Part shown: piece after piece, positions 2,301 to 59,468 of the stretch
Layout of the letters: each line of letters starts with the position of its first letter
How positions within the stretch are numbered: the stretch's first letter is position 1
Source of the DNA: PVC group bacterium (ex Bugula neritina AB1)
Lineage (GTDB): Bacteria; GCA-001730085
Direction: 5' to 3'
NCBI GenBank assembly: GCA_001730085.1
Contig: MDLB01000105.1
Location: 69 to 64,068, forward strand
DNA length: 64,000 nucleotides
The notes under the pieces: model-generated
Seen by the model: the letters and a program-made list of their open reading frames with translations, nothing else
Database searches by the model: none
Told to the model about the DNA's origin: nothing
Translations under genes and position numbers: made by a program

Positions 2301-2698
2301 AGAATAAATGTCAATATTACAATTAAAGCTATCTTAAATAAAAATAACATTATAATTAATATTTAAATTTATGTCGATGTTTTTTATAAGTTCAAGGTAA
2401 AAAAAATTTCTTATTACGGCTCTTGCGAAATACCTCATATCCCTTATTGAAAAAGATTTAGAAAACTTTCTTATTTCAAAAAAAGTTCACATTTTAAATA
2501 AATAGGGGCTTTTTTTAGGAATAACAAAAATCAAAAAAAACAACAGAAAGATGTAGTACTTTCACAGGTCTTATTCAATAGGATTATTGGAAACTCTCCA
2601 AACAAGAGTATATTTCTAAAAAATCTTATCATTTTTTATATTTATTTTTAAATATTTAAAAAAGTATCATAAAAAGATAATCTCAGATGGTTAACTTA

Positions 2699-4153
2699 TT
2701 AGGCACTGCGATAAAGCTCTCGCCAATTAATCCAGTTTTTAAAATCTTGTTCCTTAATTGTATCAAATCTGTAGCTATTAAAAATAGACGGGTCTCCCCA
2801 AACAAGCTTTTGCTCGCGTTCTAACCTCTCTAGATTAGACACCACACCCTCTATATCATCATGGGCATTTGCGACCTGTAAAAATTTTGCGTAATCTCCT
2901 TTCTGTTTAGGTGAAACTATCCTAAGCAATTCCCAATAGAGGATCCATTTAAGAAAAGGCTCATACCTTAAGATATACTCCGATATTTTCAGTTTGCATT
3001 TACCACCAGAAAAGTCTACAAAGGCCGGGGCACCAGCTGGGCTCCTCGCATTCCCTTCATGAAACCCGGACGTCAAATAAATAGTAATTTCTTTTTTCTT
3101 TGCCTTACGAAGGATTTCCTTAAAAGATGGCTCGGCAGAAAAATCTATAAAGATCTCCCCTATAGCTCTTCTAATCTCCTGTTCGCTACCTCTTCGCCAC
3201 TCTTTCGAGAATCTTTTTTCTAGTTCGACTCCTCCACGATTCATCGTCGCTTTTATACATTTACGCTCGTCAAAAGGATAAGACATGCGCCATTCTTTTC
3301 CACGCCATACAACAAATGGGCCACAATTATCAGGAAGCGTAGGAATTATTTCGTCCTTCCTTTTTTTTGCACTCTTCGTCTCAAGATCCTCTTTAATCTC
3401 TTGTTCTTCTGCTCTCTTTAAAGCCTCTGCCTCTTCCTTCCTCTTTAATCGCTCTTCCTCTAAAGCCTCTTCCGCTTTTTTTGCTCTCTCTTCCTCTTTA
3501 AAATCATCATTAAGAGACATTACGATCGTAGCAAAAGATTCCTCGAACAAACGTGCCTCTTCTTTCTGTCTGTTTAAAGTTTTCTTCGAATTAAAATAAT
3601 CCACATTTATATATACAGTCCTATTTCTTTTATCAATAGAATAAAAATCAAAATTTGCGCCTCGTACAAAAACATATGTTAATGAAATTTTCCTCATAGC
3701 ATGTGAACATGCTCTATATACTAAATCGTGTAAGTCTTTATAAGTTGCATCATCTCTATTAAAAGGTCTATTGATACCAAGCAGAGCCAAAACTCCTATA
3801 TTAGCTGCGTACTCATTATCATCAAATACTCCGAAGCTTCGCTCTATATTTGATAAGATAAACTTTTCAAATACACCACTAGAACCCTTTTTGAAGATCT
3901 TCATTTTCAGCAACTTATAGCTAAAACAACCATAAAACACAAACCGTTTATCACTACCACTTAGATTTATGGCTACACTCACATGTTCTACGCCGGGCGC
4001 ATATAAGTCAATAGCTGGGTATTTGTTTTGCGAATCAAAATACTTTTTAGAAAGATTCGATAGAGAGGAAACACCAAGAGAGTTGATATTTTTATCTGAA
4101 AAAAAATTAAAAAAACAAAAAGTTAAAACTGTTAAAAAAATAATTTTTTTCAT
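2699..4153 (-). CDS. Secreted hypothetical protein, about 484 aa, tandem paralog B.
   Basis: The ORF track extends this to 4165 from a TTG (MELSM...). The true start is the ATG at 4151..4153 (MKKIIFLTVLTF...), which has the same GGAGCTTTCT Shine-Dalgarno as paralog A. The 5' roughly 120 nt and the 3' roughly 60 nt are near-identical to paralog A. The centre is divergent and includes a charged EEER/KRKEE repeat-like segment at about 3360..3500. Confidence 0.8.
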   Translation of the reverse strand: MKKIIFLTVLTFCFFNFFSDKNINSLGVSSLSNLSKKYFDSQNKYPAIDLYAPGVEHVSVAINLSGSDKRFVFYGCFSYKLLKMKIFKKGSSGVFEKFILSNIERSFGVFDDNEYAANIGVLALLGINRPFNRDDATYKDLHDLVYRACSHAMRKISLTYVFVRGANFDFYSIDKRNRTVYINVDYFNSKKTLNRQKEEARLFEESFATIVMSLNDDFKEEERAKKAEEALEEERLKRKEEAEALKRAEEQEIKEDLETKSAKKRKDEIIPTLPDNCGPFVVWRGKEWRMSYPFDERKCIKATMNRGGVELEKRFSKEWRRGSEQEIRRAIGEIFIDFSAEPSFKEILRKAKKKEITIYLTSGFHEGNARSPAGAPAFVDFSGGKCKLKISEYILRYEPFLKWILYWELLRIVSPKQKGDYAKFLQVANAHDDIEGVVSNLERLEREQKLVWGDPSIFNSYRFDTIKEQDFKNWINWRELYRSA

Positions 4154-4261
4154 AGAAAGCTCCAAAAAATATTAAAATAAAATTAAAGTTTAAATATAAT
4201 TATTATATTAGTTTAAAATACTTATTTATAATAATATAAAAAAGATTATAATCATAAATAG
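4154..4261 (-). promoter_or_regulatory. Conserved 5' block of paralog B (promoter or 5' UTR).
   Basis: Aligns with 1942..2048. Confidence 0.4.
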
Positions 4262-4706: not shown

Positions 4707-7700
4707 TCAAACATTTTTAGATAATTTGATCATTGCTGAAAGATTTTTATTCAACAAGAGCTTCCTAGGACTTAAAACACCCGTCACACCTTCCACGTGA
4801 GAGAATCCACTCATCGCCTCTCGAAAAGGTAGAAAATGTTCGGGTTTAAGGAACCTTACATCTTTAAAAAATTCTACATCGAAGTTTTCTTCATCTCTCT
4901 GTTCATTTAACTTTTCTAAGACATAGGTAAAGCTTTCTCTAGACAAGCTCGTCTTCGTCAAACGATATAATAAAGTTTCTTCGGGAAGAAGATCTTGGAT
5001 CCTTTTATAAAACTCTTGGTCTGTTAACCCTCTATCTTCCAAGTTTCTCATTTCTAAAGTTACTCTATCTAAGGTATCTCTACCTATCCTTTTTTTATCT
5101 TGAATAAGAGTTTCTTTATAAAAATCTTTTTCGAAGTCAAAAAGATCTGATAAATCTTCAGCCCCTAAATCATTTTCAAGTGCTGACAAGGATAAGTCCC
5201 AAAGGTTGTGATCAAAAAGTTTGCTCAAAAACATTGCTGTTTTCAAAATATTAGCAGTCGAAGCTTCTGGATTAGTCTTTAGCTGATCTTTTATTTTTAG
5301 CCAATCCTCATCCGATAAAAGATCTTGTGCCTGCCATTTATCAAGATAACTTTCCAGACCCGACTCTAAAAAGGCTTCACTGATAGTCATTTTGACACGC
5401 TCATCTTCTACTGTAAAAACATAGGGTTCATCTTGCTGTGGAACAACTTCATAAGAAATATCTGATTTCTCACTCCATTGTTCAAGATTTATTCTATCTC
5501 TTTGATAGTTAACACTTGGATTAAGCAAAGACATTCGCACAGCGGCTTCCATCTCTTCAAAGCGATCAAAGAATATCTCATCATCTCTATATTCTTCCAT
5601 ATGAGGACTTTTTAAAATCTCCATAAACTTATCCACATACTCTTGCTGTTTATCCTTATTTTTACGGAGCTCTTTAGCCTCTTCAAGCTGTTTCACAAAC
5701 AGTGGGTCCATAGATGCCTTCTTTGCTAAAAGGGTATCTAATAATATTTCATCATTCTTATTTTTAGAATCAAGATACCCATCTTGGCGCATTTCTGACT
5801 CTTTAGAGAAAAGATTTCTAACCAAAGCTGTCGTTACTAAATCGGGTGCTGTTTGCTGTATTTGTCTTAAAGCGTTTAGGGCCGAAGCCTTCTTTTCAAA
5901 GTTCTCAACTTCCTTTGCTATTTTTAAAAGAAGATCCTTGGCCGCCAAAAGTTTTTCTCCATTCAGATCCTTTATATCCGTACCCAAAGCTTCTAAAATG
6001 CTTAATAACATCAAAATATAATCCTCATAGGAACCCATTTCGACATAACGGCTATCCCAAGATAGTCCAAAAGTCTGCATATCTTTCCGTTTCCTAAGGT
6101 ATTTTGTCATATCAGAAGATATACCTAATTCTTTTTGTAAGGCTTGCAAGTCACATCGTTTCACAGAGATAGCTTTCCCATTAACAATTCTTACAGAGTC
6201 AAATAAAACGTTATCCGTCAAAACATTTCCCCAATCCTTATCTTTTGACATAGGTGAGGTAGATCTTTTAACCAAAGAAGGTACAGCCTTTTCAAAAACT
6301 TCTTTAAACTCTTCGCTACGAAACTGTTGATCTCCCAAAAGGATTGATCTTTCTATTTGTTCGCTTTCTCCTCTCCTATAGCTCTCTAAAATTTCTACAA
6401 GTCTTTCTTGAGTAAAAATGGTTTCCATCGTCCCATTAGGATGCTCAACGATCAAAGGAGAACTCAAGCGATTCAAAGACCAAAGTTCAGCCAGATCATC
6501 TTCTTTCAAGCTTTCCTTAAAAAAGTCTTTTTTAAGGAAAGCCACATATTCGGGGTCTTTTTTCCTCTCCCCCTCTAGAGCAACCTCTTCTGTTGAAGAA
6601 CGCTCAAAAATCTCCGTATGCCTTAATAAAGCATCACTCGTAAATGGAGATTGAGGAGGATTCCCATTTGTGCTAAACAAGCTCTGAAGACTTTTTCTTT
6701 TTTCATCTTTATCCGAAAGGTTATTTTCTAAATCTTTTAAAACAGCGCGTATCGCCTTTTGCTCTATTTTTTTAAGTTTTAAATCGCTCTCTTCTATATC
6801 TTTAAAACTTTTTTGTATGATTTTTTCCTTCTCGCTAGCATCTTTCCCCATAATTCGTGAAAATAAAAACTTGCTTATCTGCTGAATATCATTATTCTTC
6901 TTGAGCTTTTCTATCTGTCTCTTTGGAAAAGAGCTAATACGTTCTAAAAATGTCTGGCTTTCCAAAGATTCTTTGCTCTTCAAGTCTCTCATTTTCTCTA
7001 GATCAAACATTTTAGCACCGTAGCTTTTGTGCAAATCATCTCTAGTGAAACTTTCTGATAAAGCATCATTCATTTCTTTAGCTGCAGAAGAAAGAGTTTT
7101 CGTCATCCCCGGAAACATCGTTTTTTCCTGAAGGTTTGTGAGCAGATCCCAATCCGATTTTTGGATATTCGTCGCAGAATAAAGAGCAATAAAGGCTCCC
7201 ATCATTTCTTCCTGTTTTTCAGGGTCGCTGATACCACTTAACAAAATAGCTTTTCGGATCATATCTATCGTCACATCTTTTTGATTAAAATTTCTCTTTT
7301 GCTCTTCCAGACTTTTAAAAACCCCTTGGGCTTCAAGTGAAGTATTTTTCTGAACCAATTCTAAGGCAAAGTCCTGTAAACTTTTATGGTCTTTATGCGT
7401 TTGGTGACATACATCCAGCCACTCCGAAACTTTCATCATAGAAGATATATCTTGCTTTAATCCCAAAGCCGATCCCTTGCTTAATAAATCTTGCACGCCT
7501 TGTAATAAGCTGCGATCATTTTCCCTTGCCAAGCGCACATCAACCATTGCTGCCAACATATTCGCACGAGACACGTCTACTTCTCCGTTTGAAAAACCCC
7601 CCAATTTTGTCAAAGCCATCATTGCATCTAGAGATAAATCTAACTTATTCTTTGTGAAAGCTGTTATCAAAGCCGCAGTCAAAAAGAATGGTTCAGATTT

Positions 7701-40700: not shown

Positions 40701-43700
40701 AATATCCGAACGCGTTGTATAAGTTGTTTTGTTTAGGAAAGTATTGTATTTGTCAAAACCTTCTTCATAGTTAACCTCGCTATAAGCTGTGTTAAGCCCC
40801 GAAGAGTCATAAGAAAGCGCTTGCCAAATACGTGTTCGGGTCAAATCAGGATTCTTTGTGCTCTGTTCTTTTTCTTGAAAAAACCTCATTCTTCCAGCTG
40901 GATCATAGGTCATCGAATCTCTTTCTGTGAAAACTTTTTCTTCAAAAGATTTGGCAAAAAAACTTAGTTTTTGTTCAACCCGTCGATCATAATTCAAATA
41001 TGACCTGACCTCAGAGAAAATATCTGCACTGTATTCATCAAAAGGAGGTTCTAAAATAAACTCAGAAGAAAAATCAAGTTTATCAAACGCTTCTAAAATA
41101 TTATTTTGATTATCAATATAGCCTTTACTTCTCAACGATGTTATTAGGTCAAGCCTTTCTTTCTCATTGGAAAAAATTTCCGAAAAAGCATCTGCATTCA
41201 AAAGCCCTTTAGAATCAGAAGTTAAGTGATCCCAATACTTTTCCATAATATTTTTTTGGGAGTTAAACTCTATTGAGTTTATTGGTCCAAAAAGATCTGA
41301 ATAAACCAATTTGAACCCATCTTTATAGATAATTTGTCCATTCCTTAAAGATTCAAGTTCATCTTTAGTGAAATCAGTTATATCTATCTCGTACTCATTT
41401 ATTAGCAAACTTATCTTTTCCGAAATATTTTGATATGATTTTAATTGACCCAAATCATCATAAAGCATACCTATCCTTTGATCGATCTGAAGAAGCTCAG
41501 GCTTATCATCAGTGCTAATCTCTTCTTTATATCCGTTTATCTGATTGAGAGGGTTGTATTCAATATCTGTCCTATGGATTATTTTGCGCTGCATTGGTGA
41601 ATCAGAGCTAAACTTTTCTTCCACATAAGAGTTCATTTGACCGACATTGTTATATGTGATGTTACTTCGAACCGTCGTGTCCTTGGCATCAAATTCAAAA
41701 CCTATCCCAAACTTATGATTCACATCGACATAACCAAGGAGTTTTCCTGTTTTAGTATAGCGTATATCATTCCGTGTATTCATTTCTATAATATATTTCT
41801 CATTAGCGATCAATTCTGGGATTTTTTGTCCATAAACATCCAAAACAAAATCTCCCTCACTATGTTTTTTCTTAAAGAAAAGATCGGGCCCCAAAGATGA
41901 TGATTTTCTTATATAAATGGCTTCACGGGTTTTAGGATCACCTGAATCATAATAAATAATCGGGTATGACAAAGATGTGATTTTAGAAGAAACATCTATT
42001 TTCGCAACAGAACCATCCTCTGTATAAAGAAGCTTACCCTTTTCATCAGTCATTCTAAGTACGTCATTGGCTTCTTTCATCACAAGGTTGCCTCGACTAT
42101 CCCTATAGGCTATTTTTCCTGACATATATATCTTTTCTAAATTGTCAAATCCTACAAAGGCTTCCAAACCTCCTTTGTGAGTAAAAAGAGTAAGGTCATC
42201 CGAGGGAAGCTGTCCGTAAAAAGCTTGATAAATTTTACCTTCTTGGATATAAAAAAGATCCTCACCTTTCTCACTTTTCAGAGCGTCTGAAACCCTGTGT
42301 GTATCAAAATAGTAAGGCTGATTTTCATCATATTGATCCTCTGCATAAACCTTAAATTTCCCTGTTTTTAAAGGGTTTCCTTTTTGATCAAGAAGATAAG
42401 GTTGATTATTGATTTGATCTTGATAAGATGACTGTCTTCCGAACTCATCATATGTTATAAAGTTTCTTTTGACCCTTTGATATCGATTGATTTCTTCTTT
42501 ATTGATATCTTTTTTATATTGGAACTTTTTAAATAAGAGAAGTTCGTCAATATTATCTCTAGCTAAAACAGTGCCTTTATCATCAACATAAATATCTTGC
42601 AAAGAAACAGCTTCTCTTGTCAAAGGATCCGAAGAGTCATAGATATTCTCCACAAAAGATTCCTCGAAGGATCGCTCTTTTTCTGAAGAATAAAGACCCT
42701 GAAGCTTTTGTCCGTCCTTGTCATACAAAACAATTTTATTCCCATCAACATCATAAAGAGATTTTGATGGGTCCAAAAGTTGATATCCTTTATCATCTTT
42801 AACAACACGTTCAAAAGAAGATGACTCTGATATTTTTTGCATAATATCTTCTTGCATCTGACCCACAGAGTCATACAAAGCATTCGGGTAATTTTCTCTT
42901 AAAAGTTTAGAAATATCATAAAGCTGATTATCTATCCTGATTTTGCTCATTTTGAAAATGATATTTTTTGAAAAGATGATTTTTTTTAATTTTAAGATAT
43001 CTATAACATTTTCAAAGCTATCTTTGATTTCTAAGGTTTCACCTCTTAAAAGTTGCTCTTGTTCTTCAATATTCAAGCTATCCCATTCTTCGGGAAGTTC
43101 TAAAAGACTCTCGACTTCATCAAAGAAAGACCCTCTTTCATGATTTTCGTCATCATAGGAAATCTTTTGTCCGAAACGGTTATACTGTGTATTTGTTCGT
43201 TTAGTCTCTGTTACTTTTTTCGTTTTATCATTTTTCACAAACTGTAGGTAAGAAAGCTCATATCCTCGAGAATCATACTGCGTTCCTTTTCTTAAAGTAT
43301 GCGTGATCTCTTCAATCTTTAAAACTTTTTTAACCTTTTTTAAAGTCAAAAACTTTTCAACGCCACCTCTAAAAACTGTCAACTCTTTTTGATCCAACAA
43401 AGCGCTTTTTTCATCAACTGTTAGATCTTGAAAGCTCAAGCTTTTATCTTCTGAGATATTCTCATAGTCATAAGAATATTGCTCATTCGTTCCTGTATCT
43501 ATTTTCTTATTCGTTTCATTAAAAGCTATTTCTTGACCAAAACCATTGTAAAGAATCTGCGTTCTATCAAGTTTGTCAATCGTATTACTAAGGGTGTTAT
43601 AAACCGTTTCAGAAAAACTCGTCATTTGTCCAAGATTATTATAAATAACATTTCTTCTATGAATGACTTTCTTATCTTCAAGTTTTTGCCTAACCTTTTT

Positions 43701-46700
43701 CTTCACATACCCTACACGAATCTTGGACTTCTCAACATATTTATCCATAAAACTAACAAGTAAACCCTGCTTATCAGTCTCTAAATCAGTAGTTTTCTTT
43801 CGGATCAAAAAATCAAACTTTGTATTTTCTACGACTTCAGGAACAACCACATCAAACACACCCGCTTTTTCCAAGTCTTCCATAATACCCTCATAGGTTG
43901 TTAAGAAATTTAACATCTCTCCTTCTAACTTTTCTTCCTCTTTTTTATAGTCCTGTTTAACAGTTTTAAGTTTTAAAGAGGGCACACCCCCTATTTCTCT
44001 CGGAGAGTTTTCTGTTCCAATCCATTCATTGTGATAAAGGTTTATTTTTTCAATGATCGCGGTCATGCGATCGATCATATCTATCTTTTTTAAAGAAGGT
44101 TGAATAAGAGAGAGCTCTTCAGAAAAATAAGAAGACAGATTTTGCGAAGAGGAACTAAGTATATTTGTTAATCTTTCTTTTTTCCTTTCTATATCTTTTT
44201 GTAAAACATCTCCTTCTGAACTAAAGAAGAAATCCCGCTCTTCATAAATCCCATCTGAACTCGGTCTATAAGACTCTGTATAGATATGATAATTATTAAA
44301 AGCATCATCATCACGAACAATGAATTTTTGGGCAAAAGTGTTCTGACTTGTAGGATTAATATCAATATAATCATCGTTAAGATAAACCGAAGCCTCTTCA
44401 TACTCTTTCTGAAGTAAAAATACCTTTAGGCTTTCGATAAAAGCGCGTATTTTCATGGAAGCAACATATTTTTCTCTCTCATTGTCACTATTACTATAGG
44501 TATCAAGCCAACCATTCAAATTCAAAAGTGAAGAGATTTCATCCATTTCTAAACTAGAAAGTTTATCTTGCAAAGCTTCCCATTCATCACTTCCCAATGT
44601 TAAGAGGTTTTCAATAGATCCATTTTCTAAAACCTTAATAAGGTTTCGAAGGTTTTCTTCGGAAGAAAGGTTGAGATAAGTCGTTACTGCAGTTTGAAGA
44701 GCCTCTGACGAGCTATCTTCGTTAGCCTTAACCGTATTCAATCCCGTTTTGATCAAGCCATTAAAAATGGCATCATATTGTTTAGAAAACTGACCTGAAT
44801 ATAATGAAAGATCATCAAATTTTTGATCTATATATTTTCTATTTTCTGGTAAAGATGACCAACCTCCGGCACTTATAATGCTGTTAAAAGTGAAACTACT
44901 TTTCCCTCGTGGACCATATTTTTTAAGACCAAAAAAATCACCACGTGTTCCCCAGTAGTTATAGCCATCAGAAAGTAAACCTTCATCATTGGTATGAATA
45001 CTCACATCATCAACCAAATCTCCATCGCCCAAAAGCCCAAGCGTATTATTTTTTAAAAGAGTTGCTATCTCTTCTTCATAGCTTTTTCTATAATCCACAA
45101 GGTCAACATCTCCACGTGTGCCGACTCTGTCATTCGCTGCGTTAAGAACAATCGTACTCAAGTCATAAAATTTTAACTCTCGGGAAATAAAAGTATTCAC
45201 ATCCTCTATATCATCTAAAGCCTCAAAACTACCGTATGTTAAAGGTGATTCAATCGATTCAAGCAAAATCTCTGCATCTCTAGCAAAAGGAGCAGCTTTC
45301 ATATTATCAATAAGATCTTGATCAACCCCTTCTCTTAAAGCTTCCCTTGTCATAGAAATATCACCTTGATCAGAAGGCGTTACTTCTGTGCCTGTGATAA
45401 GCGACCCTGTCAATTTTTTCAATAAAAGATCTCTTGCTCCTCCAGCATCTAAGTAATTGGGATTTTTTTTCTCATCCAAAAGATTCATCATATTATCAAG
45501 CAATGTTTTTAAATGATTAATATTATCAAAAGCCAATTTTGCGTTAGCTTTTTCTGAAAGAACCTTCTCTCTATAGGTATTTAGATCTGCCTCACTGGCT
45601 TGATCTCCCATTAAAACTGTTTGCCTAAATAATTCAATATCCGAGACAACACTATCCAAAACATTATTAACAAAATTCAAAATGACTTCTGCAGATGCTC
45701 TACGCGAAGACTGCAAAAGGGTGTCTCCTGTATTGCGACTAAGGATAACTTCTGCTTTATTTTTCAAACGTTCGTATTGAACATAGGAGTCACAAACATC
45801 TTTAATCCTCATCGCACTTATGATTTTTCTTTTAGCCTCTACAGCCATAGCTTCGGAGATCCAGTCACCTGATTTTGCACTCAAATAGTTTGGTTCGCTT
45901 GTGAACCATGGGATATCCGGTACAACTTGATGATTGTTCAAAATAGATTCAATCTGACTCATGTCATAAATATTTAATATATTAGAACTTTCAGAAGCAA
46001 AGTGATCTAAAAACCCTTCCTCCTCTAACTCTCTTAGTCGATCTCTCTGTTCATCGAAACTATCTTTTAAGATTTTTAAAGGACTACCCTCTGCTTCATT
46101 ATCATTAGGCCCTATCCTTAATGATAATGACGGTGTTTCTTGTGTTATATCAGCATTTAAATTTTTGGCATATTCAGCCATACTCTTTATTTTTTTGAGA
46201 ACACTAGAGCTAGTGAAAGCGTTAATAATATCATCGGCCAGATCAATATCAGAAAAAGTTTCTTCGTTTAAACTTAACTCCCACATCATAAGAATGTGGT
46301 TCTTTCGCTCGACATCTCCATCCACCATAGCCTCTTGATACATTTGTTTTAAGTTATAAACTGTACCCTCATCATGTTCAGAGAGTTTAAACAAAAGATC
46401 TTCCGGTAAGTCTATCCAGTTCGGCTCTGTCGAAGTATCAAAATCCTCTATGCTGTTCATCATATCTGTTCTGTCGAAGTCCTTATTAGTGAATCTATCA
46501 TGTAGTTTATTTAAGAAATTTTTATAATCCCCATCTGAAACATCATCCACAGAAAACCTACCTCTTACTGATTCAAGTGTTAAACCAGAATTCTCTACAC
46601 CATTAAGTTTATCGCTTAAAAAAAGTTTAGTGTTCTCGAGCAAAGAAAAAAAATGAAAATATGAGTTTGTACCGCCTATACTTTCTAAATCCGAAATATT

Positions 46701-49700
46701 ATCATTGGGAATATTATCCTTAACACCTTGAGATATATTTTCTATCATTCGCTTTGCTTCATTCAAAAGCAAAGCCGCTTGGACCTTTCTCTCAACATCC
46801 TCCGGTGTCAAGTCAGGAAGATTCTCAGGAGACAGTGAAGGCAAAAAAGTTTTAGCAAGTTCATATTGTTTACTAGGACGCTCAAACATACTTAAGAGAT
46901 TAAATGGAGGGTTAACGGTATTGATAGATATATCGTAATCGGTTGTAAGCATCCCAGCATTAACCCAATCAGCAAAAACATTTGCTTTGTTATCCGAATA
47001 CATATCTATATCGTAATAAGTCATATCTATAGCTGAATCATCCAACAAATCTCTGATCCTTTTAAAGTTCCGCCTATAATCTCCCGTTACTTTCGTATCC
47101 TCATCTGTATGAAAAGAAGCGTGAATATGTTTATCCAATTCAAAGGTTGGATCTAACGTGATATCCGCAAAGGTGTTTTCTACCTGTTTTTTAAAAATAT
47201 CAATAAAGACATTCGTAGCATCTTGAAGGGTTTCACGATTATCCGAAGGGATCCTCTTAAAGATATTCAATACATCATGCAGATCAGTAGCTACGGCAAG
47301 CCTCTTAAAAGATTCCTCCCTCCAACGCTCACTTTTATTTTTAACAGATCTCATTTGAGCCACCTGAGAAGTCATCTCTGCATGGGCTTCCGAATATTTT
47401 TTTAAAAAAGTAGCGATCATTTGTTCGTGATATCCACTAAGGATTTCAAACCTTTTGATCGCATAGGTATAAAGAGTTTTTTGAATTTCATAGGATAAAG
47501 ATGCCTTAGAAGGCTGTGCTTCATTCACAGGGCTTAAGTGAGACAACGCAACCTTTGTTTCGCTTAAAGCTTGTTCCAAAGTAACATCGATCGCAGAGGC
47601 AACCTCATAGTCTTGACTGTTAAGGCTCTGAAAAACATCTTCTGTAAAGTATTCATAAACATCACTCTGTGGTGTTGATAGATTTAAGTTCTTCACTTTT
47701 TTTATCGAGGGATTGGTCCACTTTTCAAAAGTATCCAATAAAGCTATATTAGAGGACCTTGGAACAAACTTTTCACTCAAAGGTTTTTCTAGTAAAAGCT
47801 TTTTTTCTTCACTAATAAGCCTATCCATTTCGTCAAAAAAACTATCAACAGAATCCAAAACATGATACTTCATCATTTTTATTTTATGCTCTTCGGAAGA
47901 TACTAACATTTCTTTATTAGAACTAAAAAAGTATTGAATATGTTCATCACTTAATTCCGATATTTTATCCTTATAGTTTTCATTTTCGGCTTGAACATTT
48001 TCAAGATTACTTATGAATTTTTCTATTTCATAGCGACGTTTACTCGCCTTATTCTTTTCTAACAATTTTTCATAATAATTATTCATAGTTATCTCGATAC
48101 TCTCACGCACACTTTGCGTAAGAGAAATATTGAACTTTGGTTTAAAATGAAATATCTCATACCAATGAATACCTGCTTCACGATCTTCCTGACTTGCTCT
48201 ATCGTATTCAACCCTGTTCCCCTTCAAAAGCTCATCTTTTTGCTCTGCAGAAAAATTATCAATAACCCCTCCTATCTCCCAAAAGTTGTCCCACTCCTCA
48301 TCAGTCATAATTGAGGGTTTCTCGAATCGATCTTTCCATGCGAAACGTAAACCTAAGAAAGCCTCATCATCACCAAAGTAGCCATAATCTTCTAAACCAA
48401 AATACTCTTTCCACCTCTCGACTTCACCTGTATGGGAAGAATCTCTATCTGGTATCTCATACATACTTTCGGAAATAGAAACTTTTATTGACAGACGAAA
48501 GTCATCAATACCTTCTGAAATCAATTCTTTAGATTCATCGTATAAAGCAGGTGCTTGAACCCCATAACTAAAATCCCAAAGATTGAGTAGCTCCTCTCTT
48601 ATATCCTCTGAATAGCCTTTTTCAAAAAGTTTTGACTCTAAAACATTTTTGGAGTCAAAACCCCATAATAAAGTCCCTTGATGATTAAAGTTTTCTCTAA
48701 AAATACCTTTTTGTATCAACGAGTCTATTTGATGGTCAAAAAGTTCATAGTCAATAGACAACGCATCTCGATGGATAGTTCTATGAGCCTTACCAAGTAA
48801 AATGAGTTGATCTTCGGAAGACATTGTTTTATAACCATATGCCGTACTTAACCAAAAAGCTCTCCATTGATTGGCGTACGTAACAGGAGAACCATTTTCA
48901 TAAACGGTAAACTCTTCATCTTTCCAACCACTCGGAGCCTCAAAAAAGTTTTCTATCTCATTCCCAAATAGTCGTTCAATGACTTCAAATTTTTCTAAAA
49001 TGATATCAATCCGATCATTGATCAATTCTTTTTCGTCTTGAAGTTTATAGATCTGCTCATCATCTTCAGGGGTGTTTAAAGTATTAATAGTCAATATGAT
49101 TTTATCTAAGGCTCTTCTTTCACTCGCAAGGGTCTCTTCTAACTTCTCTTTATAATCATTCGTCACTTTTTCCATGATTCCTAAAGATGGAAGAGCCTCG
49201 GGGTCCAAACCTTCTGCGTTTTTAGCGACAATAATTTTATACATAAGTTCTCTCAAAACATTTCGAGTTGAATCACTAATATCTTTTGACTCATCTAAAA
49301 CTTCCGCTATAATTTGATATTCTGAACCCGCATATGTTTGGATCTGTGTATCTGCTATAAGTTTTTGTTTTTCCTTCTCCTTTAACAAAGTGAAAATATC
49401 TTCTTTTTTCTCTTCAAAACCTGACGAAAGTAAAAGTTCCGAAACATCTTTCATCTCTAAAGTTTTATTCAGAATGAGACCCTTTTGTTCAATATACCCT
49501 TTACTAATAAGCTCTTCCCATAACATCTCCGGAGTTAGATTTTGTACATTTCCTATTTCTAAAAAAGAAAAGTCTTCTTTATCAAGAACACCTTTCATTC
49601 CCTTATTTTTTAAAAGATCATAAATCTCTTGACGATAATTAGAAAAGACACCTTCCATATCAAAAAATTGAGCAGCAGAAACATCTTTTATGTTATCTGT

Positions 49701-52700
49701 CACGACACCGAGGGTTGCTATATACTTGTTTTCAACCAACTCTTGCCATAGTTTTTCGGCTTGATCAGCGTCATCCCCAAAAATCATTAAATCTTCAGAA
49801 GAAATAAAACCTCGAGACATCTTAAAGACATCTGAAACTTCAAACCTTTCTACCAAAGAAGACGTCGCTAAAGAAAATTTAACTCTTTCCTCATTCAAGA
49901 TAACCTCTCCACCACTTAGAATAGACAATTTTTCTTCTTCATTGAGCTGACTAAACCCATAACTAAGACTGTTCCAAAAAGCATCCCATTTAGATTCATA
50001 TAAAACCGTTTCTCCCTCTTCTTCGACAGAGTAAGGATTTTCCCAACCTTCTGGAATCCTAAAAAAAGCTCCAATTTCCTCAACACTTTGACCAACTTTA
50101 TAATTTTCTTGGTCATATTCAATTTCTTGTCCAAAAATGTTATAAGCCATGTTGTATCGAAAACTGATATTTCTCACGTTCGGCGAATCTTGTTGAATGA
50201 TCGATTCATCATAAGATAATGTTTTACCCAAATCGTTATAAGATATATTTTGACGCTGATAATAAGTACTTTTATCGTTAGTGAAGTGTGCTTCATAATC
50301 AATAGAGAAATCATTATCAATCTGATCAATCATGCTCGCTGTGAAATCTTTTTTATCTAAGTTACCATCTTGATTAATATCAAAATTTTTCCACATATCG
50401 GGTACAATATTTAGTAAAAAATCATGAATCATTAGTGATTCTATAAATTCAAAGCTATAGTCATATTCCAAAGGTTGTTGGATACCAAAAAGTTTTTCAA
50501 AAGCAATTTTCGCTAAAACAACCTCCACTTCTTTAGCTAAAAAAATGTTTTTTGGTTCAAAATATTCGTTATAAGTCTTTTCTCCCAAGATATCTATCAA
50601 TTTAGATGAACTCACAAAGTACTCATCCCCAAAGGATTCTTTGTAATCTTTTCTTCCTAGTTTCTCCAACATCTCTTCTGCCAAAATCATAAAGTCGTCC
50701 ACAGAGTAAGAAAAGACTGTTTGTAATTTTTCATTCAAAGAAAAAAGCTGTTCTTTAAGGGCTTGTCCTTCTAAAAGATATTTCTGTGTACTCTCACCTT
50801 TCTTCTGGATTTTTTCGAAATATTCATTTTCTCTACCTAAAAGATCATAATATATATTCTTTTTTTCCCTAACCGTTACCATATCCGGAGATGCTGTACT
50901 TAAGTTCACTTCTTTATAAAACTCTTCTTGTCCAACTTTGTTATATATCGTCTTTTCCCTATGCATCTTATTGATAAGGTTTATTCTTCCTTCCGTAAAA
51001 ACTTCTCCTGCGGTTATTGTTATCATTTCTTCCCCGTCATCTGTCATCGAACTAACAAAGGACATATTTTCATGAGAAGCCACCGCATCTAAAAGATTTC
51101 TCAAATCTTCAACAGATGAAGATAAAAAAGTTAGAGTTCCATCTTTCTCTAAAAGAAATTTTTGATCTGGAGTAAGAAAGGATTGCATTTCCTCAGAAGA
51201 AGAAGCATACCTCTTAATCTCTGTCGTTCCCATAAGGTGTGAGGATGTCGATCTTTTGTCCAAAAGCCCCGCAACGTTGTAATGCATATCCGTAACGGTA
51301 TCAACTGTTAAGAGGTCTGGTTTGCTCAAATCTTTAATACTCTCCACATACCCTGTCATCTGTGAAAAGTCGTTATAAGTCGTTTCCGACCTCAGCCGTA
51401 TCTCTCTCGTGCTAAGTTTCTCTGTGATTTTAACCCCCGAGTATTCCTTAGTTCCTCCAAGGTTTAACAAATGATCCTGATATGTAATACGTCCCTCTTT
51501 GGAGTTTTCCCAAGCTTCCAAAATAAAATCAATTTCGGAATTTTCATAACCAAACTTTTGAAGGCGAAAAAGTAAATCTCCCTCCGAAACAACATTCCAA
51601 TACAAAGATTGACCGGTTTGGTCAGAAGGGTCTTGTATTAAAAAATTATCTTCAATCAAAGTAGACAAAACTTCATTTGATGTGATCATCTCTCGTCTAA
51701 TTTTAAAATCTAAAAGGGTTTTTAAAGATAAAACTTTCTCATGCGAAAGCTGATCAAATTCATTTGAATCGTAATAAAAAACTTCTTCATTTTGCTCATC
51801 CCACATGACCTTAACATCATCCCTATCGACATATCTTTTTTGTTCTGTTTCGGATAAGTTGTGCCACTCTTTATCCGTGATATAAAAGTTTGATAAACTT
51901 TTATTATCTTCGGCAACAAGTGTCTTTTTTCTTAAGTTTTGCAAAGCTATTTTTTTAAAAGAAGAAAAGTTTGATTTGATATCTATAGAAAGATTGTCCC
52001 AATCGGACAAAGAAAAATATTGATAGGTCCCTGCTGGATCTTTTTTCTCCCCCATCACCAGCATGTGTCCATTACTCAAAAGACTTTCAAAAATAGCGAC
52101 TTCTTCGCCATTTGTTTCTTTATTCATAATGTTTTGTTCATAAAAGTCTTTACTTATACGATAAGTATCAAAGTAACTGCCCCAAGGGATATTTTTTAAA
52201 GAATAAGGCGGAGCCAAACCAGAGGATCTTGTCAAAATATACCTATCCCCATCAATTTCTATTTGACCTCCCTCAAAAAGCGTTTGTTTATTCTCTAGAC
52301 TCAATTGATCAAACACACCATCTTTTGCCCAAAAATCGTCCCAAGAATCCGTGAAAGATGATGACGATTCATCAAAAAAAGTCTTCCAAGACATACGATC
52401 AAGATCAAAGTCCGTTTGCATTCCCAGAGAATCTTCTTGATTATAATCAGCAAAAGCATAGTAACGTTCAGCGACACCTTCACTATTTTTTGATTCTAAA
52501 TAACCTTTTTCATAACCACTATCATCGTAGTGTATAGACTTCTTTTCTATCCTCGTGTCAATACCTCTATGATCTTTATTATCTTCGACATAACCAATAA
52601 TTTGACCTCTAGCATTATAAGAGGTTTCTCTGCGGAAGCTTTGGCTTTTTTCATCTAAAGAAAACCTTTTATTGACTTTTTTTAAAACAAAGTTTTCATA

Positions 52701-55700
52701 GTCAAAATTTTGAAAAAAACTTTTCATATCTGATAAGCGCTCATTCAAAAAAACATCATCTGAAGGAAAATAAGTATCCTCAGATAAAATGTGAATGATG
52801 TTCTGCAGATCTTCATCTAAATGTTTAAAAACGTCCCCCCTCATTGAATCTATGGCATAACGATCAATAAAATCTTTGAACCACGATAAAATTTCTTCTT
52901 GAATATCCAAAGTTTCTCCAGCATAAAGTTTAATAATTTGCTCTTCTGTTAAAAAGTCTTTGCACCAAGTGTTTTCCTCTAATATTCTTCGGTCAACTTC
53001 TTCCCGAAAACTCTCACCTTTTTTATAAACTGTACGCCTATATGTATCTTGGTAATCAAATTTGCCATATGTTATGTCTCTCATTTCAGTCATAGTAACA
53101 AGGTCAGGGTGAACATTTGAGCGCTGGATCTCATTATAAGATCTAATATTTCCTCGTTGGTCATAGAACATATCTGTTCTCAAAACACTCTCATGAATAC
53201 TTTGAAGAACATGATTATCAAAATCATCATAAGCAAATCGTTGAATATTATCTATATAATTTGTATTTTGACCTAGCTTATCATATCGCATCCCCGTACG
53301 GATAGTTCGAACCGTATTCTGTGTCTTAAATGAGGTTGAATCACTTTCTCGAGCAAGGTTTTTTTCTATATCTATGTAACTAATAAGTTGATCCAACTTG
53401 TTATAAGACATATGAGTTCTAAGTCTAACTTTTTCAAAATTTGAATTTCCAGAATTTTTTGAAAAAGTTTTATAAGCAATTTCCTGACCTAATTGATTGT
53501 AATGAGTGTAAACTCTTTTCTCTTCCTTAAGATTGTTGATCAGGCTTTCTTCTTTATAAAAGATCCCCGCATCTGTTATCAAAGCGATATCTGATTCATC
53601 GATTTTTAAATCATCATTCAAGTCAAAATGCTCATTGTAACTGACACGATGTTCCATCATATCTCTCATCATAAGATAAGCTTCATATTCATTAAAAAAC
53701 ATATCAAATCCAACCTGTCCGAGCTCCACCTTTTTTTGATCATAAGAAAAAACAGCTCCATCAAGATATTTTCCGTTCCAGATGTTTAAATTAACAGCGA
53801 TTTCCTCTAAAACACCATCCGACACATCAACAGTAAGCGCCAAAAGGTTTTCTTCATCAATATCCAACGTCTCTTCAGCAGGGTAAGCCTTTTTTATAGT
53901 TTTCCAAATAGATTCTCTTTCACCTGAAGATAAGTGTCCTATATGATCAAAAAGAGCTTGTTTATTCCTAGCTTTTGGAACAACTGTCACAAAGTTGGGA
54001 TTAACAGAGTCTTCGACTAATAAGCTCATTTCAATCAAAGTTGAGAGGTGATCCCCAAAACGTCTTTTTTGTATACGACCACTATTATTGATAGCTTGGA
54101 TCATAACATCTATATCTACTAAGCTTTCAAAAGTATCAGTCACTTTAGAAGCGATCTCATATTTTTTAATCACATTCGATTCTTTATCCCATTCTTTATT
54201 TTCAACATATTTACGTTCCCAACGGTTCATTTTTTCAACTGCTTCTGGAACGTTATACCAATGCGTATCTTCGCTATAACTCTTCACTCTAAAATGATCA
54301 TCATATTTAATATCATAACGAAAGCGGTCATTTTTTTTATCTGGATGACTTGAGTCTTCGGTGACATCAGTATAAGATGTCATTAATCCCATAAAGATTT
54401 TTTGTAAATTCCCATATCCATCTACATAGTCTAGTGATTTATACTTTATATCTTTCCTACTTGTTACTTTTTTAGAAGCACTTTCTGAACCTAAAAGGCT
54501 GATATTAAAAGAAAGATCCTCTGGCACAGAATCAGGTGAAATATTTTTTCCATCCGAAGACAAATAAAGGCCATTTTCTCCAAAAAAATAATCCAATATA
54601 AGATCATTTATATTTTGTTGAGAGATATCGCCTCTCCCATTCTCTTTTAACCATAATTTTTGATAAATAGATTCTCTCAAAGCCTCCCTATCGTTATCAA
54701 ATTGATCTTGACTTATAATAAAATGATCACTTTTAAAAATATTTTTTCCAGCTTTAAGATCTCTAATAAAAACTAATGCTTTATTTCTATCAAAATCAAT
54801 TTGACGACTGTCTCCCAATAATATTTTTTTAATCCAAGAAACCTTCGCATTAATAGGAATATCCAACGGATTAATATCACCTCCACCTAAGGAACCTATC
54901 GGAACTTCATTAATATCAAGCGTTTGAGAAACCTGAGAGTTTTCTCCAAAAAGATATTCTAATATTTTTTGATTGATTTTTGATTGATCCAAGTCCCCAT
55001 CATTACTCTTATCTTCATCTTCAAAAAGACGCATGTCATCATAAATACTTTGAGCCAAATCTTGTAAAGCCCCTTCTTCTTCCTTAAGATAATAAAAATC
55101 ATATTGATCAAAGACTTTAATATCATTCAAAAGTGCGAAAGCTACCTGTTGCAAACCTCTCCCTTCATAGCCAACTTGCTGATCTTCTTCTCCTATTTTC
55201 TCACGTTCATTTTTATACGAACTCAACATATTATTTTGATCATATCTTCCTGACCATCGTTCTAATGTTTCCAAAAGCTTCTCGCCATTTTGACCATATT
55301 CACTTATCCTTTTAGTTTCTTTTGTTCTAAGATTCAAATCACCTTTAAAAAAAGTATTTGTTGTCACGATTTTTTTAGGAAAAGCTGTATCTAGACCATT
55401 AACATGTTGCTCTTGCTGAAGATCATAATCTATTGTTTTAGAAAAAACTTGATTACCACGCTCATCATACTCATCTTGCCGATGCGTTAAGACATTTTCG
55501 TTAATATTACCATTCGCATATAAAGTCAGATCTCCCTTATAAAATTCCTGCGCCTTACGATCTTTTTTTCTTTCCGCATCTTTATAAAGATAACAACCCT
55601 GAAACTTAAGATATCTTTCTCCTGTGGAAGCATTAAGCCCATGTTCATATGATCCTAGTATTTTTCCATCCGAATTGTAACCGTAATCTTTGATGATCAA

Positions 55701-58700
55701 GTCAGATTTCTCTAAACCTTTGGGTTTAAGATGATCCCAATTTATATCATCGATATCAAATCCTTTTGACAAAGGGATCGCCATATTATTTCTATTCAAA
55801 ACAGGTAAAATTTTTCCTTCTTCATCTTTATATTCTAGTACGGGGGTGGCTTGCCAAAAAATATCCAACCATTCCCTTCCACCTTCTTTACGAGATGAGG
55901 AATAAGAAAGCTCTAAGTCATTATTATCGTATAAAATATTCCGACGTTTCTCGACAACATTCCCATTCGCTTCCTGCTTCAAGTTTTCTCTATCATATTC
56001 AAACAAACGATTCGCCGGATCATATTTCATATTTTTCATTTTCACCATACTTAGAACACCATTTGTCGTGACATGCTCTGTATAACTTTGGTTCCTACCT
56101 TGAGCATCATATTGGATATCAAACCTATGCATCTGAGAAACATTACCGTTTGAGGTATTTTTACTAAAGTATTCTTTACGTTTATCCTCATGATTGTAAT
56201 GAATCGCTTGCATATCCATAATATAATCAGCTTCATCAGCATTTACACCTTCTTCCTTATAAGCATAAAGCCGTTTTTTATGGTCATAAATCATGTCTGT
56301 TTTTTTGCTAACGCTCTCTGTCATTATGGGATGTTCAATACCTTTTTTCTCCCTCATTTTGGTGATACTTCCCGTTAGGCGATCATCAACGTTATAGCCT
56401 AGATTTGAAACATCCATAACGGTCTCACTATAGGATAAAACTTTGCCTGGATCTTCTATACTTTTATAAGTTATTTCATTAGTATCTCTATACTGAAAAA
56501 GTTTCCCACGGATAACTTTTGTATCTTTATCTATCTCTCCGTCTTTGATCAACCCTTCATTTGTATAGGAGTGAATTCCGGTTGCATCTCTTATGCTTTT
56601 TTGGATAGAATCTTCAATCATTTTTACCCGTTCACCTTCTTTATTCAAAATCCACGTCTTACTTTCCTGTGTATCGGTATTGTATTTAAGAAGATTGAAA
56701 TCATCCTCCATTTCTCCATAAACAGCATCTCCCCAAGATTGATGAGAAATTTTCTCAACTTTGACTTTATCAACCTCAAGATCTTTCTGAGTGATCACAT
56801 ACCCTTTCTCATTAAGAGCTTCAAAGTATATATCTTTTTTCTCATTCAAAAAGTGTTCGTGATCAAGCAAGTCTTGAACAATATCGTATTCGTTTAATAT
56901 TTCATGAAAGTTTTGAGAAGACAAAAAGATGAGTAACTCTTTCGGGTCTTTAATAAGATTTTCCCAGTCTTCTTTTGTGACTTTTAGATCTCTATTTTTA
57001 TAAATAAAATATTTATATTCTTCAAATTTCGTATCCAAAAAATCATTAATAGAGTCATAAAAAAAGTCTCTAACAAAGCGATTCGGAAAATCTCTAATAT
57101 TGTATAAATCATTTTGGAGAACTTGAAAGATATCAATATCTTTAGTCTCTTCCGCCTGCGGCGTCGTTTCTAAAAGTCCTGATGTTTTTAAAAGTTTTTC
57201 CCATAGGGCTTCTTCTAGATTGATATCTTTAAAATCGTTTGAAATTTTATTCATTTGCAAAAGTTTGTGATTATTTAAAAAAGACTCAACTTGCACCTTG
57301 GAATCTATTAAGGCTTGTATAACAGCATTTTTCTTGTCTTCATAAATAGTCGAACGTAAAGCATTCAATTTCTTTAACAATGTTTCACTATAAGAAGAAA
57401 AGTCATCAAAGTTCGTATGTGAAATAGCGTCCCACTGAAACATTTCTCCAAAAAGGAAATCAAAAATATCTACACTAGTATTAAGTTCTAAAGAAGAAAT
57501 ATCCACATCAACTGCTTCTTGCAAGCTCTCTGGTTTTTCTAATTCCTTTAAAGCCAAGTTAATATATTCTAAATAAGAGTTCACTTTATCATCTTTATTC
57601 TGAACCAAAAGCTCTGTTTTTCTAGAGATTTTAGATAAAACATCAAGATCTTTTGCGGTTAAAAGACCTTTCTCATTCAAGTAAGCGAGCTTTGAATCAG
57701 CATCCTCCAAATCATCCCAAGCGTTAGAAACTTTTGAATAGATTTGTCCAAAAAGATTTTCTTTGCTGTTATATACTCTCGTGTTATGTTGGACAGTTCT
57801 TTTCTTGTAAAAACGAAGATTATCCCTATCATCATACATAGCATCATAATAAAGTGACTCTTCATCGACAATTTCGTTATTCTCATCCAATTTATATGAA
57901 TAAATTTTGTATTTGCTAACTTGTCCATTCTTATACTCTGTTTGGAAAACTGCTGTTTCCAAAAGCTTAAATAAAGAATCTGAATATTTGGCAAATTGTT
58001 TATCAATTTGAAAGTCATACTTTCTTTCTATTTGTTTAAAATGATCTGTGACAAAACCATCTTCCGTTATATATCCTCGTTGAATAAGGTCCCTCCAAAT
58101 ACGTTTTTTAGGCCCTCCAATGTTTCTTTTGCTTATTCGCCCTTCACCTACAAATGGATCCCATAAACCCCATTTTTCAACTTTGGTTGGAGATTGATTA
58201 GATATCGTTTTCTTTGTATAGCCTAAAATTTCGCCATACTTATTGTAGGCATATGATTTCTTTTGATCTGTAACTTGCTTAGAATAAGTTGAAATATCTT
58301 TTGAAAAATTTTCGTTTCCTAAACTTTCTTGATATCCACTGGATTTTTTATCAACAGAGTTAGCTTCCCATAGAACTAAAGTTTCTTCTCCATCACTTGA
58401 ACGCGTATGTTCCCGGTAAGAAAGAACCTTATCATTTTTCGCCTTAGGGCTTTCGAATAAATAAGAGCCCTCCCATGTGACATTTTCGACACGACCAACA
58501 TGATCAGTTACTATTTTTTCATATCCTAAAAGATTTTTATAAGCATCGTAAGGATTTCCTTCTTTTGACTTCGCTTCCCATTGCGTACGGGTAATATGCC
58601 CATGTTGATCTGTGATTTTTTCATCATAACTTAATAAATTTTTATCTTTGTCATAAGTGGCATTTCCCCACTCTTTGACTTTGGGATTTTTCCCATAAAA

Positions 58701-59468: not shown

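Follow-up and report, generated by a model that had tools for sequence, protein, structure and literature searches.

What does a single 54.8-kb open reading frame encode in the small genome of an animal-associated bacterium, and is it one gene at all? The frame lies within a 64,000-nucleotide stretch of contig MDLB01000105.1, hereafter the window. One protein encoded beside it, OED34651.1, carries the source name "PVC group bacterium (ex Bugula neritina AB1)". The source is the bin AB1_div of the PVC superphylum, recovered from a Bugula neritina metagenome (Miller 2016; PMC5041132). AB1_div is uncultured, is found in bryozoan brood chambers and belongs phylogenetically to an animal-associated deep PVC lineage; the giant gene is not discussed in that study (PMC5041132).

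The giant gene and its locus

The open reading frame occupies 4707..59468 of the minus strand and, in the ORF listing and its translation, comprises 18,253 codons and one TGA stop. The preliminary description of this DNA had proposed a single giant gene with a proper ATG, a Shine-Dalgarno site and a TGA stop, and all of these are present; the Shine-Dalgarno-like site (AAGGA, 59474..59478, minus strand) sits 5 nt before the ATG. Over these 54.8 kb none of the five remaining frames stays open for more than 339 codons, and each contains 909-2,253 stops. The base composition puts log10 of the probability that 18,253 codons lack a stop at about -668. Codon-position GC is even along the entire gene (GC1 0.44-0.46, GC2 0.27-0.34, GC3 0.26-0.35), and the gene therefore looks coding from end to end. 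All 164 tryptophan codons are TGG and in-frame TGA is absent, so the standard code fits. These counts, together with the finding that read-through of the stop adds just three codons, led us to reject recoding of TGA as Trp, an idea prompted by a decayed paralog upstream of the giant in which a TGA is aligned to Trp. A downstream hairpin had also been described. Small stems do exist, but the folding of the 3′ 120 nt is no more stable than that of shuffled sequences (z = -1.22), and a terminator scan found no terminator.

The assembly is a short-read SPAdes metagenome, and this lends some weight to the view that the frame is mis-assembled or non-functional. Collapse of repeats is unlikely, since the internal repeats are diverged (22-34% identity at the protein level), the in-frame tandem duplications detected by TRF are few and small (four, of 27, 27, 45 and 87 nt) and colinear homologs occur in two other metagenomes. 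Given also the vanishing probability of so long a frame by chance, the uniform coding periodicity and the lack of near-identical repeats, we regard an artefact as extremely improbable. The giant is one genuine gene. The window has no RNA genes by Rfam and tRNA scanning, and the neighbouring genes in the window match no Pfam family.

About 2.9% of a genome of 1.9 Mb is given over to this gene. It had been placed among the largest prokaryotic genes known, a ranking that is now outdated: Omnitrophota alone have 5,761 proteins of at least 10 kaa, the longest reaching 147,155 aa (Nielsen & Lui 2026, bioRxiv 10.64898/2026.06.07.730766), and in other PVC phyla proteins of this size are "frequently detected" (West-Roberts et al. 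2023, bioRxiv 10.1101/2023.11.21.568195). The giant leaves the view of how large bacterial genes can get unchanged.

The long-YD repeats and their family

All detectable repeat units lie between aa 203 and 12,115 (23124..58862, minus strand), as located with self-derived and family-derived HMMs. Their consensus, W....YD..GR..SY.E...D..G....K.W, has a period of about 31 aa (29-33 aa inside runs), and we refer to it as the long-YD repeat. The self-derived HMM finds 63 units and an HMM built from relatives only finds 39 (0 in shuffles). About 40-63 units, some 2,000 aa, can thus be detected; they occur 2-10 at a time, with unique sequence between these short runs; the longest unbroken run is about 260-330 aa. 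The YD motif is enriched about 10-fold in aa 1-12,700 (67 observed against 6.7 +/- 2.4 in shuffles), with a single occurrence in the C-terminal part (0.6 in shuffles). The first 12,000 or so residues are mostly unique sequence, dotted with small clusters of a 31-residue repeat of YD type, a predicted β-hairpin.

The densest run (aa 6180-6437; 40158..40931, minus strand) was modelled by AF2 as a β-hairpin meander in which 17 long strands run antiparallel (pLDDT 80-97 over 256 aa). When this model was searched against the PDB with Foldseek, 10 of the top 13 matches (E 1e-5 to 8e-3) were Rhs cores or Tc BC components; teneurin-2 accounted for two more and SGS1 for one. The earlier claim of some 12.7k aa of YD/RHS shell-type repeats thus survives as to the presence of YD-type repeats in the N-terminal two-thirds, and fails as to their extent.

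Curated libraries name no portion of the giant. A lack of YD/RHS HMM matches across the N-terminal two-thirds had been set out beforehand as what would refute the repeat assignment, and formally this is what was found: searching the whole protein against Pfam in 4,800-aa tiles (E<=0.01) and 1,000-aa tiles (E<=10) returned sub-threshold noise and no RHS_repeat. NCBIfam, whose YD-repeat model we take to be TIGR01643, gave no match at all in seven pieces that included the densest YD runs. A PDB sequence search with four 5,000-aa tiles was equally empty. Six of the 14 marginal matches in a PDB profile search were Rhs chains, and a profile of three repeat units found no Rhs chain in the PDB.

These data bear on the possibility that the giant is a classical Rhs, Tc or teneurin protein scaled up, in which the repeats wrap a C-terminal cargo in one or more closed cocoons until aspartyl autoproteolysis frees it. 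The enriched YDxxG(R/Q) turn motif, shared with T6SS Rhs effectors, TcB-TcC of Tc toxins, teneurins and mosquito SGS1, would fit this, as would the predicted antiparallel hairpin sheet with its Foldseek matches, the marginal Rhs chains and a weak match of one family member to Pfam PF05593. However, the period is about 31 rather than about 21 aa, the predicted strands are longer, and the repeats escape both RHS_repeat and NCBIfam. The runs are short and scattered where an Rhs protein has one continuous shell, and even the longest falls far below shell size. The core and autoprotease motif (PxxxxDPxGL/DPxGL) is missing: neither DPxG[LWIVMF] nor PxxxxDPxG matches anywhere in the giant, and the four bare DPxG strings (1.5 expected) all lie away from the repeat/tail boundary. 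There is no plug, and the neighbours in the window include no recognisable delivery partner of the T6SS (VgrG, PAAR) or Tc (TcA-like) kind. Hydrophobic stretches of hairpin size follow the repeats. In a 1,200-aa AF2 tile the separate runs alone were confident and nothing closed, which is a weak negative given the shallow alignment. The scaled-up Rhs reading is consequently improbable, and the giant is not the classical Rhs/teneurin-style shell that had been suggested for it.

An exhaustive search among 1.84 billion sequences recovered 467 representatives with the repeat at E<=1e-3, 32 of them at <=1e-30. Their source names are Elusimicrobiota, Omnitrophota or simply "bacterium" (unclassified MAGs). 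One of 31 members touches PF05593 (E 4e-5). Eleven long members share a layout with the giant, namely a signal, repeats, one or more hydrophobic stretches soon after the last repeat, and a variable tail. In two relatives, P0002 and P0018, the tail is a RES toxin domain, of a kind that targets NAD+, and a small overlapping ORF follows one of the two; another member has a T9SS sorting domain. Visual inspection of the tails of relatives suggested GHSxG lipase-like and PLA2-like motifs, which had no Pfam or PDB support and were set aside. Judged by sequence, the long-YD repeat defines a rare, uncurated and Pfam-dark family of very long proteins, and the giant fits it in having units spaced by about 31 aa, great length, few cysteines and a signal. 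As a longer-period form of the YD hairpin set in a recurring layout, the repeat would broaden the range of designs known among Rhs-like toxin and adhesion proteins, and several hundred giant proteins that are currently dark would gain an annotation from a curated model.

Two colinear homologs of the giant itself were found in long-read metagenomes independent of the source. The closer, L005, is 34-45% identical over aa 9-2,813; its assembly is a long-read one at 3x, and the two frame breaks examined there both fall at A8 homopolymers. The other, L003/L004, is 21-29% identical over approximately aa 106-7,776. The flanks of the window, L003 and L005 have nothing in common. Neither the ortholog alignment nor the flanking protein matched a GTDB representative genome, the flanking protein had no exact match among encoding contigs, and an exact 40-mer matched nothing in JGI metagenomes or IMG/VR. 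Against a word index of 5.8 billion proteins, the N-terminal 5,000 aa retrieved P0001 and P0002 alone, by way of the repeats. In that set the three-unit profile had 0 matches and missed even P0001, a null that reflects the limit of the tool.

Signal, membrane zone and C-terminal tail

A hydrophobic signal or signal-anchor spans aa 9-31 (59376..59444, minus strand), preceded by three Lys and with a possible A-F-G cleavage site. The N-terminal signal anchor that had been predicted is therefore present, and an equivalent segment occurs in L005 and in P0070. Cysteine makes up 0.04% of the giant, 0-0.06% of the orthologous fragments and a median of 0.1% across the family, compared with 0.4-1.2% in the neighbouring genes. 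Such family-wide depletion would be expected of chains exported unfolded.

By hydropathy, the predicted transmembrane segments are restricted to one zone, aa 12,752-15,225 (13794..21215, minus strand), in agreement with the membrane segments proposed earlier for the C-terminal third. The zone has nine uncharged hydrophobic stretches, five of which are hairpin-sized (38-64 aa). Between the hydrophobic clusters lies a charged, helix-prone stretch (aa 13,841-14,761; 15186..17948, minus strand) in which three short segments resemble coiled coils and small perfect duplications keep the reading frame.

The remaining tail (aa 15,226-18,253; 4710..13793, minus strand) is acidic and helix-prone and has no family, PDB or database match. 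The C-terminal 5,000 aa gave 0 matches in the word-indexed set of 5.8 billion proteins. A PHROGs search with the C-terminal 8,750 aa, which addressed a tape-measure-like idea, was likewise empty, and no toxin domain was found in the tail by Pfam, PHROGs or PDB sequence search. The ATPase assigned to this part in the preliminary description was rejected: there is no P-loop domain, and the one loose Walker-A-like string, AVTGIGKS at aa 15,836, has no supporting domain.

Possible roles of the giant

Because about 3% of a small, symbiont-like genome is spent on this gene, the giant is almost certainly central to the dealings of AB1_div with its host, the bryozoan, or with the surrounding microbes. 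We lean towards a surface or secreted cell-contact protein that follows the logic of polymorphic toxins or large exotoxins rather than Rhs-type encapsulation, a reading we hold to be somewhat better than evenly balanced. The N-terminal signal would take the chain over the cytoplasmic membrane, and the repeat-bearing region would form an extended scaffold of β-sheet, Rhs-like but open. This scaffold may reach or bind another cell, either of the host or of a neighbouring microbe. The hydrophobic hairpins would then anchor the giant, or insert into the target membrane so as to pass or position the C-terminal part.

CdiA, MARTX and the large clostridial toxins combine a secretion signal, long repeats, a hydrophobic membrane-active segment and a variable C-terminal tail. 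The giant has its parts in this order and two of its relatives are tipped with RES. It differs in sharing no sequence or domain homology with those proteins, in the lack of a toxin domain or, among the neighbours in the window, of a recognisable immunity gene, and in a tail and membrane zone that are an order of magnitude larger.

A purely structural adhesin or holdfast fibre, with the C-terminal hydrophobic zone in its own membrane and nothing delivered, is a possible if fairly unlikely alternative. It would account for the signal, the long Cys-poor repeat-bearing region of extracellular type, the failure to find a toxin or enzyme domain, the life of AB1_div in animal tissue and the T9SS sorting domain, typical of surface proteins, in one family member. 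The commonest reading of such proteins is indeed as giant adhesins, or attachment giants of the Dockerin type (10.1101/2023.11.21.568195). Yet the C-terminal part, which at 5,500 aa comprises nine hydrophobic segments and a tail of 3,000 aa, goes far beyond the needs of an anchor, and the RES toxin tails of relatives point to delivery. Delivery of another kind would apply if AB1_div were an intracellular symbiont and the hairpins were inserted in a host membrane, their charged helical flanks in the host cytosol. Bilobed hydrophobic domains are a hallmark of chlamydial Inc proteins, and the giant, from a PVC lineage of animal brood tissue, has five uncharged stretches of hairpin size with charged, helix-prone flanks. 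We nonetheless give this little credence, since the N-terminus resembles a Sec-type signal, an 18-kaa type III substrate is implausible, the window has no type III secretion genes, the Pfam and word-indexed searches found no similarity to an Inc family and an intracellular life is presupposed. Very unlikely, finally, is a predatory or multi-enzyme giant of the Omnitrophota (Archaeovorin/Dockerin) kind that degrades prey cell walls. PVC affiliation, size, transmembrane segments and the Omnitrophota origin of some repeat-family members would suit it, but its marker domains are absent, with no SecA_DEAD, glycosyl hydrolase or transferase, peptidase (C39/S8), dockerin or TSP3 domain at the Pfam threshold.

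The cell-contact reading has a bolder form, which we consider doubtful. The giant and its two colinear homologs might belong to a class that has not been described, an inter-cellular bridge or injector that is complete in itself. An open long-YD scaffold of more than 12,000 aa would span the gap to host or prey, five bilobed hairpins would enter the foreign membrane, and the charged helix-prone segments with the tail, about 4,500 aa together, would come to lie on the far side. If so, delivery or tethering would be achieved without an Rhs cocoon or a dedicated injection machine.

Compared with the giants of Omnitrophota and other PVC phyla, the protein lacks carbohydrate-active and the other enzyme and dockerin domains named above, its transmembrane segments are gathered in a single zone instead of being distributed over its length, its host is a deep animal-associated PVC lineage and not a member of the Omnitrophota, and no tubule with exterior helices was recovered in the AF2 tile. 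The similarities are nevertheless broad. At 18,253 aa in a PVC-related genome it exceeds the 10,000 aa that mark these giants, its repeats are diverged rather than recent, and by hydropathy it carries a signal and transmembrane helices, the latter common in giants of PVC-related phyla (10.1101/2023.11.21.568195). It shares a large or complete Pfam darkness with 137 of 916 catalogued giants, and AF2 gives Rhs-like antiparallel β assemblies for Omnitrophota giants as well (10.1101/2023.11.21.568195; 10.64898/2026.06.07.730766).

The giant gene is a real, intact reading frame

The gene at 4707..59468 on the minus strand is a real, intact open reading frame encoding a Cys-poor giant of 18,253 aa with an N-terminal hydrophobic signal, patchy runs of long-period YD-type hairpins and a late zone of membrane segments. 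It is a member of a rare family in which one layout recurs. The ORF listing of the window gives an ATG start and a single TGA at the end, and the base composition puts the probability of 18,253 codons without a stop at ~10^-668. Across this 54.8 kb, each of the remaining five frames contains 909-2,253 stops, and the longest open stretch among them is 339 codons. Codon-position GC is constant (GC1 ~0.45, GC2 ~0.30, GC3 ~0.28-0.35) and the gene therefore looks coding over its entire length. The single uninterrupted frame of the preliminary description thus stands, as does its Shine-Dalgarno sequence (AAGGA, minus strand, 5 nt 5' of the ATG). The hairpin it placed downstream is weak: the 120 nt 3' of the gene are no more stably folded than shuffled sequence (z = -1.22), and a terminator scan found none for this gene. 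Its main worry, assembly collapse of the repeats, is unlikely because tile-against-tile BLASTP of the protein gave only 15 matches, at 22-34% identity, and TRF found only four small in-frame duplications. These short, perfect or near-perfect tandem duplications lie in the C-terminal part at 9375-9428, 15613-15671, 15661-15756 and 16304-16466 (27, 27, 45 and 87 nt, respectively). At the protein level, examples are MDGTIPKISKILPNN x2 and LNPEIQRL.KE.KDLSSKIDRM x2; they are a recent small-scale expansion amid otherwise unique sequence.

The source bin, AB1_div, is a deep PVC lineage with an "NPL-UPA2"-like 16S, recovered from the brood chambers of one bryozoan colony (1.91 Mb, 108 contigs, 34.7% GC, 20.8x coverage, 96% complete; Miller et al. 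2016, PMC5041132). The giant gene makes up ~2.9% of this genome. Its sequence has been public since 2016 and goes unmentioned in that paper. PVC-group phyla frequently encode proteins of at least 10,000 aa (West-Roberts et al. 2023, 10.1101/2023.11.21.568195), and 5,761 proteins of at least 10 kaa have been reported, the longest of 147,155 aa (Nielsen & Lui 2026, 10.64898/2026.06.07.730766). Of 916 giants catalogued in the latter study, 137 are Pfam-dark, and a signal peptide or TM helix is present in 94%. Since giants are common in PVC-group and Omnitrophota catalogues, the size and general architecture are expected in this part of the tree, and a place among the largest prokaryotic genes known can no longer be claimed. 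What is new is the description of the gene, the 31-residue YD variant, the layout that recurs across its family, the grouping of hairpin-type membrane segments into a single late zone, and the animal-associated host.

Repeats, relatives and shared layout

The YD motifs are real, but not over the ~12.7k aa first assigned to them. In aa 1-12,700 the pattern Y[DN]xx[GND][QRNKE] has 67 occurrences (6.7 ± 2.4 in shuffles), and in the C-terminal part it has one (0.6 expected). An HMM derived from the giant itself detects 63 repeat units, every one within aa 203-12,115; one built from relatives only detects 39, with zero in the C-terminal part and zero in ten shuffles. The units form runs of 2-10 at a spacing of 29-33 aa, with the consensus W....YD..GR..SY.E...D..G....K.W. 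Together they total ~2,000 residues, and by sensitive self-comparison the remainder is essentially unique sequence. A second motif, hydrophobic-x2-[KRQE]-G-[YFL]-[ILV], most often in the form L..KGYI(D/E)..G, is present 10 times (2.5 ± 1.6 in shuffles), at aa 461, 597, 885, 3320, 4481, 6112, 9837, 11290, 11480 and 12302 (minus strand, window ~22560-58090). Most occurrences sit in the segments that separate YD runs, where the motif may be the sign of a small linker domain.

Curated libraries give no match. With large tiles Pfam returned no family at E<=0.01, and 1,000-aa tiles at E<=10 gave nothing beyond sub-threshold noise; NCBIfam, PHROGs and PDB-sequence searches gave no match. The RHS and YD HMM searches proposed in the preliminary description accordingly found neither RHS_repeat in Pfam nor a NCBIfam YD model. 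The ATPase it placed in the C-terminal part also fell away, with no ATPase domain found and a single Walker-A-like string, AVTGIGKS, at aa 15,836.

When the N-terminal 5,000 aa were put through a word-indexed search, two proteins came up, each matched by way of the repeats. P0001 (7,394 aa, partial) fills its contig and has ~100 units at a strict period of 30-32 aa. P0002 (5,369 aa; L001 5459-21855, Logan SRR14932572 contig) starts with a signal peptide, carries 37 units and ends in a RES domain. A 96-aa ORF, a candidate immunity or antitoxin gene, overlaps the P0002 stop by 4 nt, with further small ORFs beyond. Exhaustive HMMER with the unit profile against 1.84 billion representatives gave 467 matches at E<=1e-3, 118 at <=1e-10 and 32 at <=1e-30, many of the 467 being 2,000-8,000 aa long. 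Named sources are Elusimicrobiota, Omnitrophota or "bacterium" MAGs, and PF05593 matched only one of 31 members scanned; the repeat family is both rare and uncurated.

Three of these matches resemble the giant beyond the repeat. P0123 shares 38.7% identity with aa 1147-2553 over 1,413 residues, and its contig (L005, GC 0.345; ENA ERZ25071824, a "3x" long-read assembly) follows aa 9-2,813 colinearly at 34-45% identity, with frame hops. Both frame breaks inspected fall at A8 homopolymers, suggesting sequencing errors. P0070 and P0041, on one 57-kb ENA contig (L003/L004), match aa 106-656, 1888-3192 and 5228-6547 in colinear order (22-29% identity); the contig also follows aa 7117-7776 at 21-26%, with faint matches farther along. 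By this colinearity, other uncultured organisms have homologs of at least the first ~7,800 aa. A search of GTDB representative genomes gave no match.

Three lysines, a ~22-residue hydrophobic stretch (aa 9-31) and A-F-G form the N-terminus, and a similar type is present in both colinear homologs. We infer a Sec-type signal or signal anchor, in agreement with the preliminary description. Cys is depleted, with 7 in 18,253 residues (0.04%) against 0.4-1.2% in neighbouring genes and 2.9% expected from base composition; the depletion runs throughout the family (P0003-P0151, median 0.1%). At ~aa 12,700 the composition shifts from Tyr/Asp-rich (Tyr ~5-6%) to Lys/Leu/Ala-rich (Tyr ~2%). The membrane part proposed for the C-terminus is supported by nine uncharged hydrophobic stretches in aa 12,752-15,225, five of them of helical-hairpin size (38-64 aa). 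They form two clusters kept apart by a ~920-aa charged, helix-prone stretch with three short coiled-coil-like segments. Acidic, helix-prone sequence makes up the final 3,000 aa, and the final 5,000 aa have zero homologs among 5.8 billion proteins searched. Eleven long family members share with the giant the order of a YD-like region, at least one uncharged hydrophobic stretch (30-74 aa) no more than a few hundred residues beyond the last unit, and a tail; in several, a hydrophobic segment is present at the N-terminus as well. Among ten tails searched for domains, that of P0018 carries a RES domain, as in P0002, and that of P0059 carries DUF11 and a T9SS sorting domain; the others are dark.

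Fold of the repeats and possible function

AF2, given a shallow alignment of the giant's own runs, models aa 6170-6520 as 17 antiparallel strands of 10-12 residues with tight turns between them (pLDDT 80-97 across 256 residues). Rhs, Tc, teneurin and SGS1 structures fill 12 of the 13 best Foldseek places in the PDB at E 1e-5 to 8e-3 (Rhs core 8qja; Tc BC components 6sue, 6h6e, 4igl and 5kis; teneurin-2; SGS1), with TM-scores of only 0.1-0.3. A single-unit profile placed six Rhs chains among 14 marginal PDB matches (E 0.7-7); a three-unit profile (31-aa period) found zero.

We propose that the chain would be exported and that its repeat-bearing region would make a beta-sheet scaffold, Rhs-like but open, with which to reach or bind another cell. 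The hydrophobic hairpins would then anchor the giant or insert into a target membrane, carrying or positioning the C-terminal part. This combination would follow the logic of polymorphic toxins and large self-translocating exotoxins, not Rhs encapsulation, a reading in which we place somewhat more belief than doubt. The main rival is a pure adhesin or anchor, which we regard as unlikely, if a serious contender.

The Foldseek neighbours would suit a classical Rhs cocoon, the shell-type architecture first described. The Rhs core motif PxxxxDPxGL was not found in the giant, and a 1,200-aa AF2 tile (aa 5228-6427), confident inside runs only and with pLDDT <50 in the 450- and 140-aa intervening segments, gave no closed shell or tubule; a cocoon is improbable. 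An Inc-like host-membrane effector, for which the hairpin-sized stretches and the animal host would speak, is just as doubtful. The size of the protein would fit an Omnitrophota-style multi-enzyme predation protein, and the empty domain searches weigh against this very improbable alternative. With a frame open over 54.8 kb and colinear relatives, an artefact is scarcely credible.

Neighbouring loci

No flanking genes are conserved between the giant's locus and the homolog loci. Upstream of the closest homolog (L005 753-4893) are a Cap4-nuclease-like ORF (E 2e-4) and a 1,243-aa STAND/AAA NTPase with TPR; they are defence-island-like and unrelated to the flanks in the window. L006 1-32770 (GCA_964640155.1, CAZXEQ010000008.1) carries two consecutive giant genes on the same strand, of at least 3,658 aa and then 7,589 aa (P0011, a repeat-family member), both Pfam-dark.

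Directly downstream of the giant, a ~2.3-kb tandem duplication carries two signal-bearing proteins on the minus strand, of 507 aa (418-1941, identical to GenBank OED34651.1) and 488 aa (2699-4165, 47% identical to the first), each followed by a short near-identical segment (56-205 and 2337-2486). They have no family match and no relatives in GTDB genomes. On the other side, a divergent plus-strand frame of at least 782 aa (61654-64000) runs past the window end and contains at least two modules of ~330 aa, with the motifs LIFSQQN, TGxPW..DILEQ and EENW..LV.EF and then a multi-TM block. Neither these modules nor a decayed third copy at 59916-61227 (+) matches a Pfam family. A frame change interrupts the decayed copy, as does a TGA, which at 60159-60161 occupies the exact position of a Trp in the paralogs.
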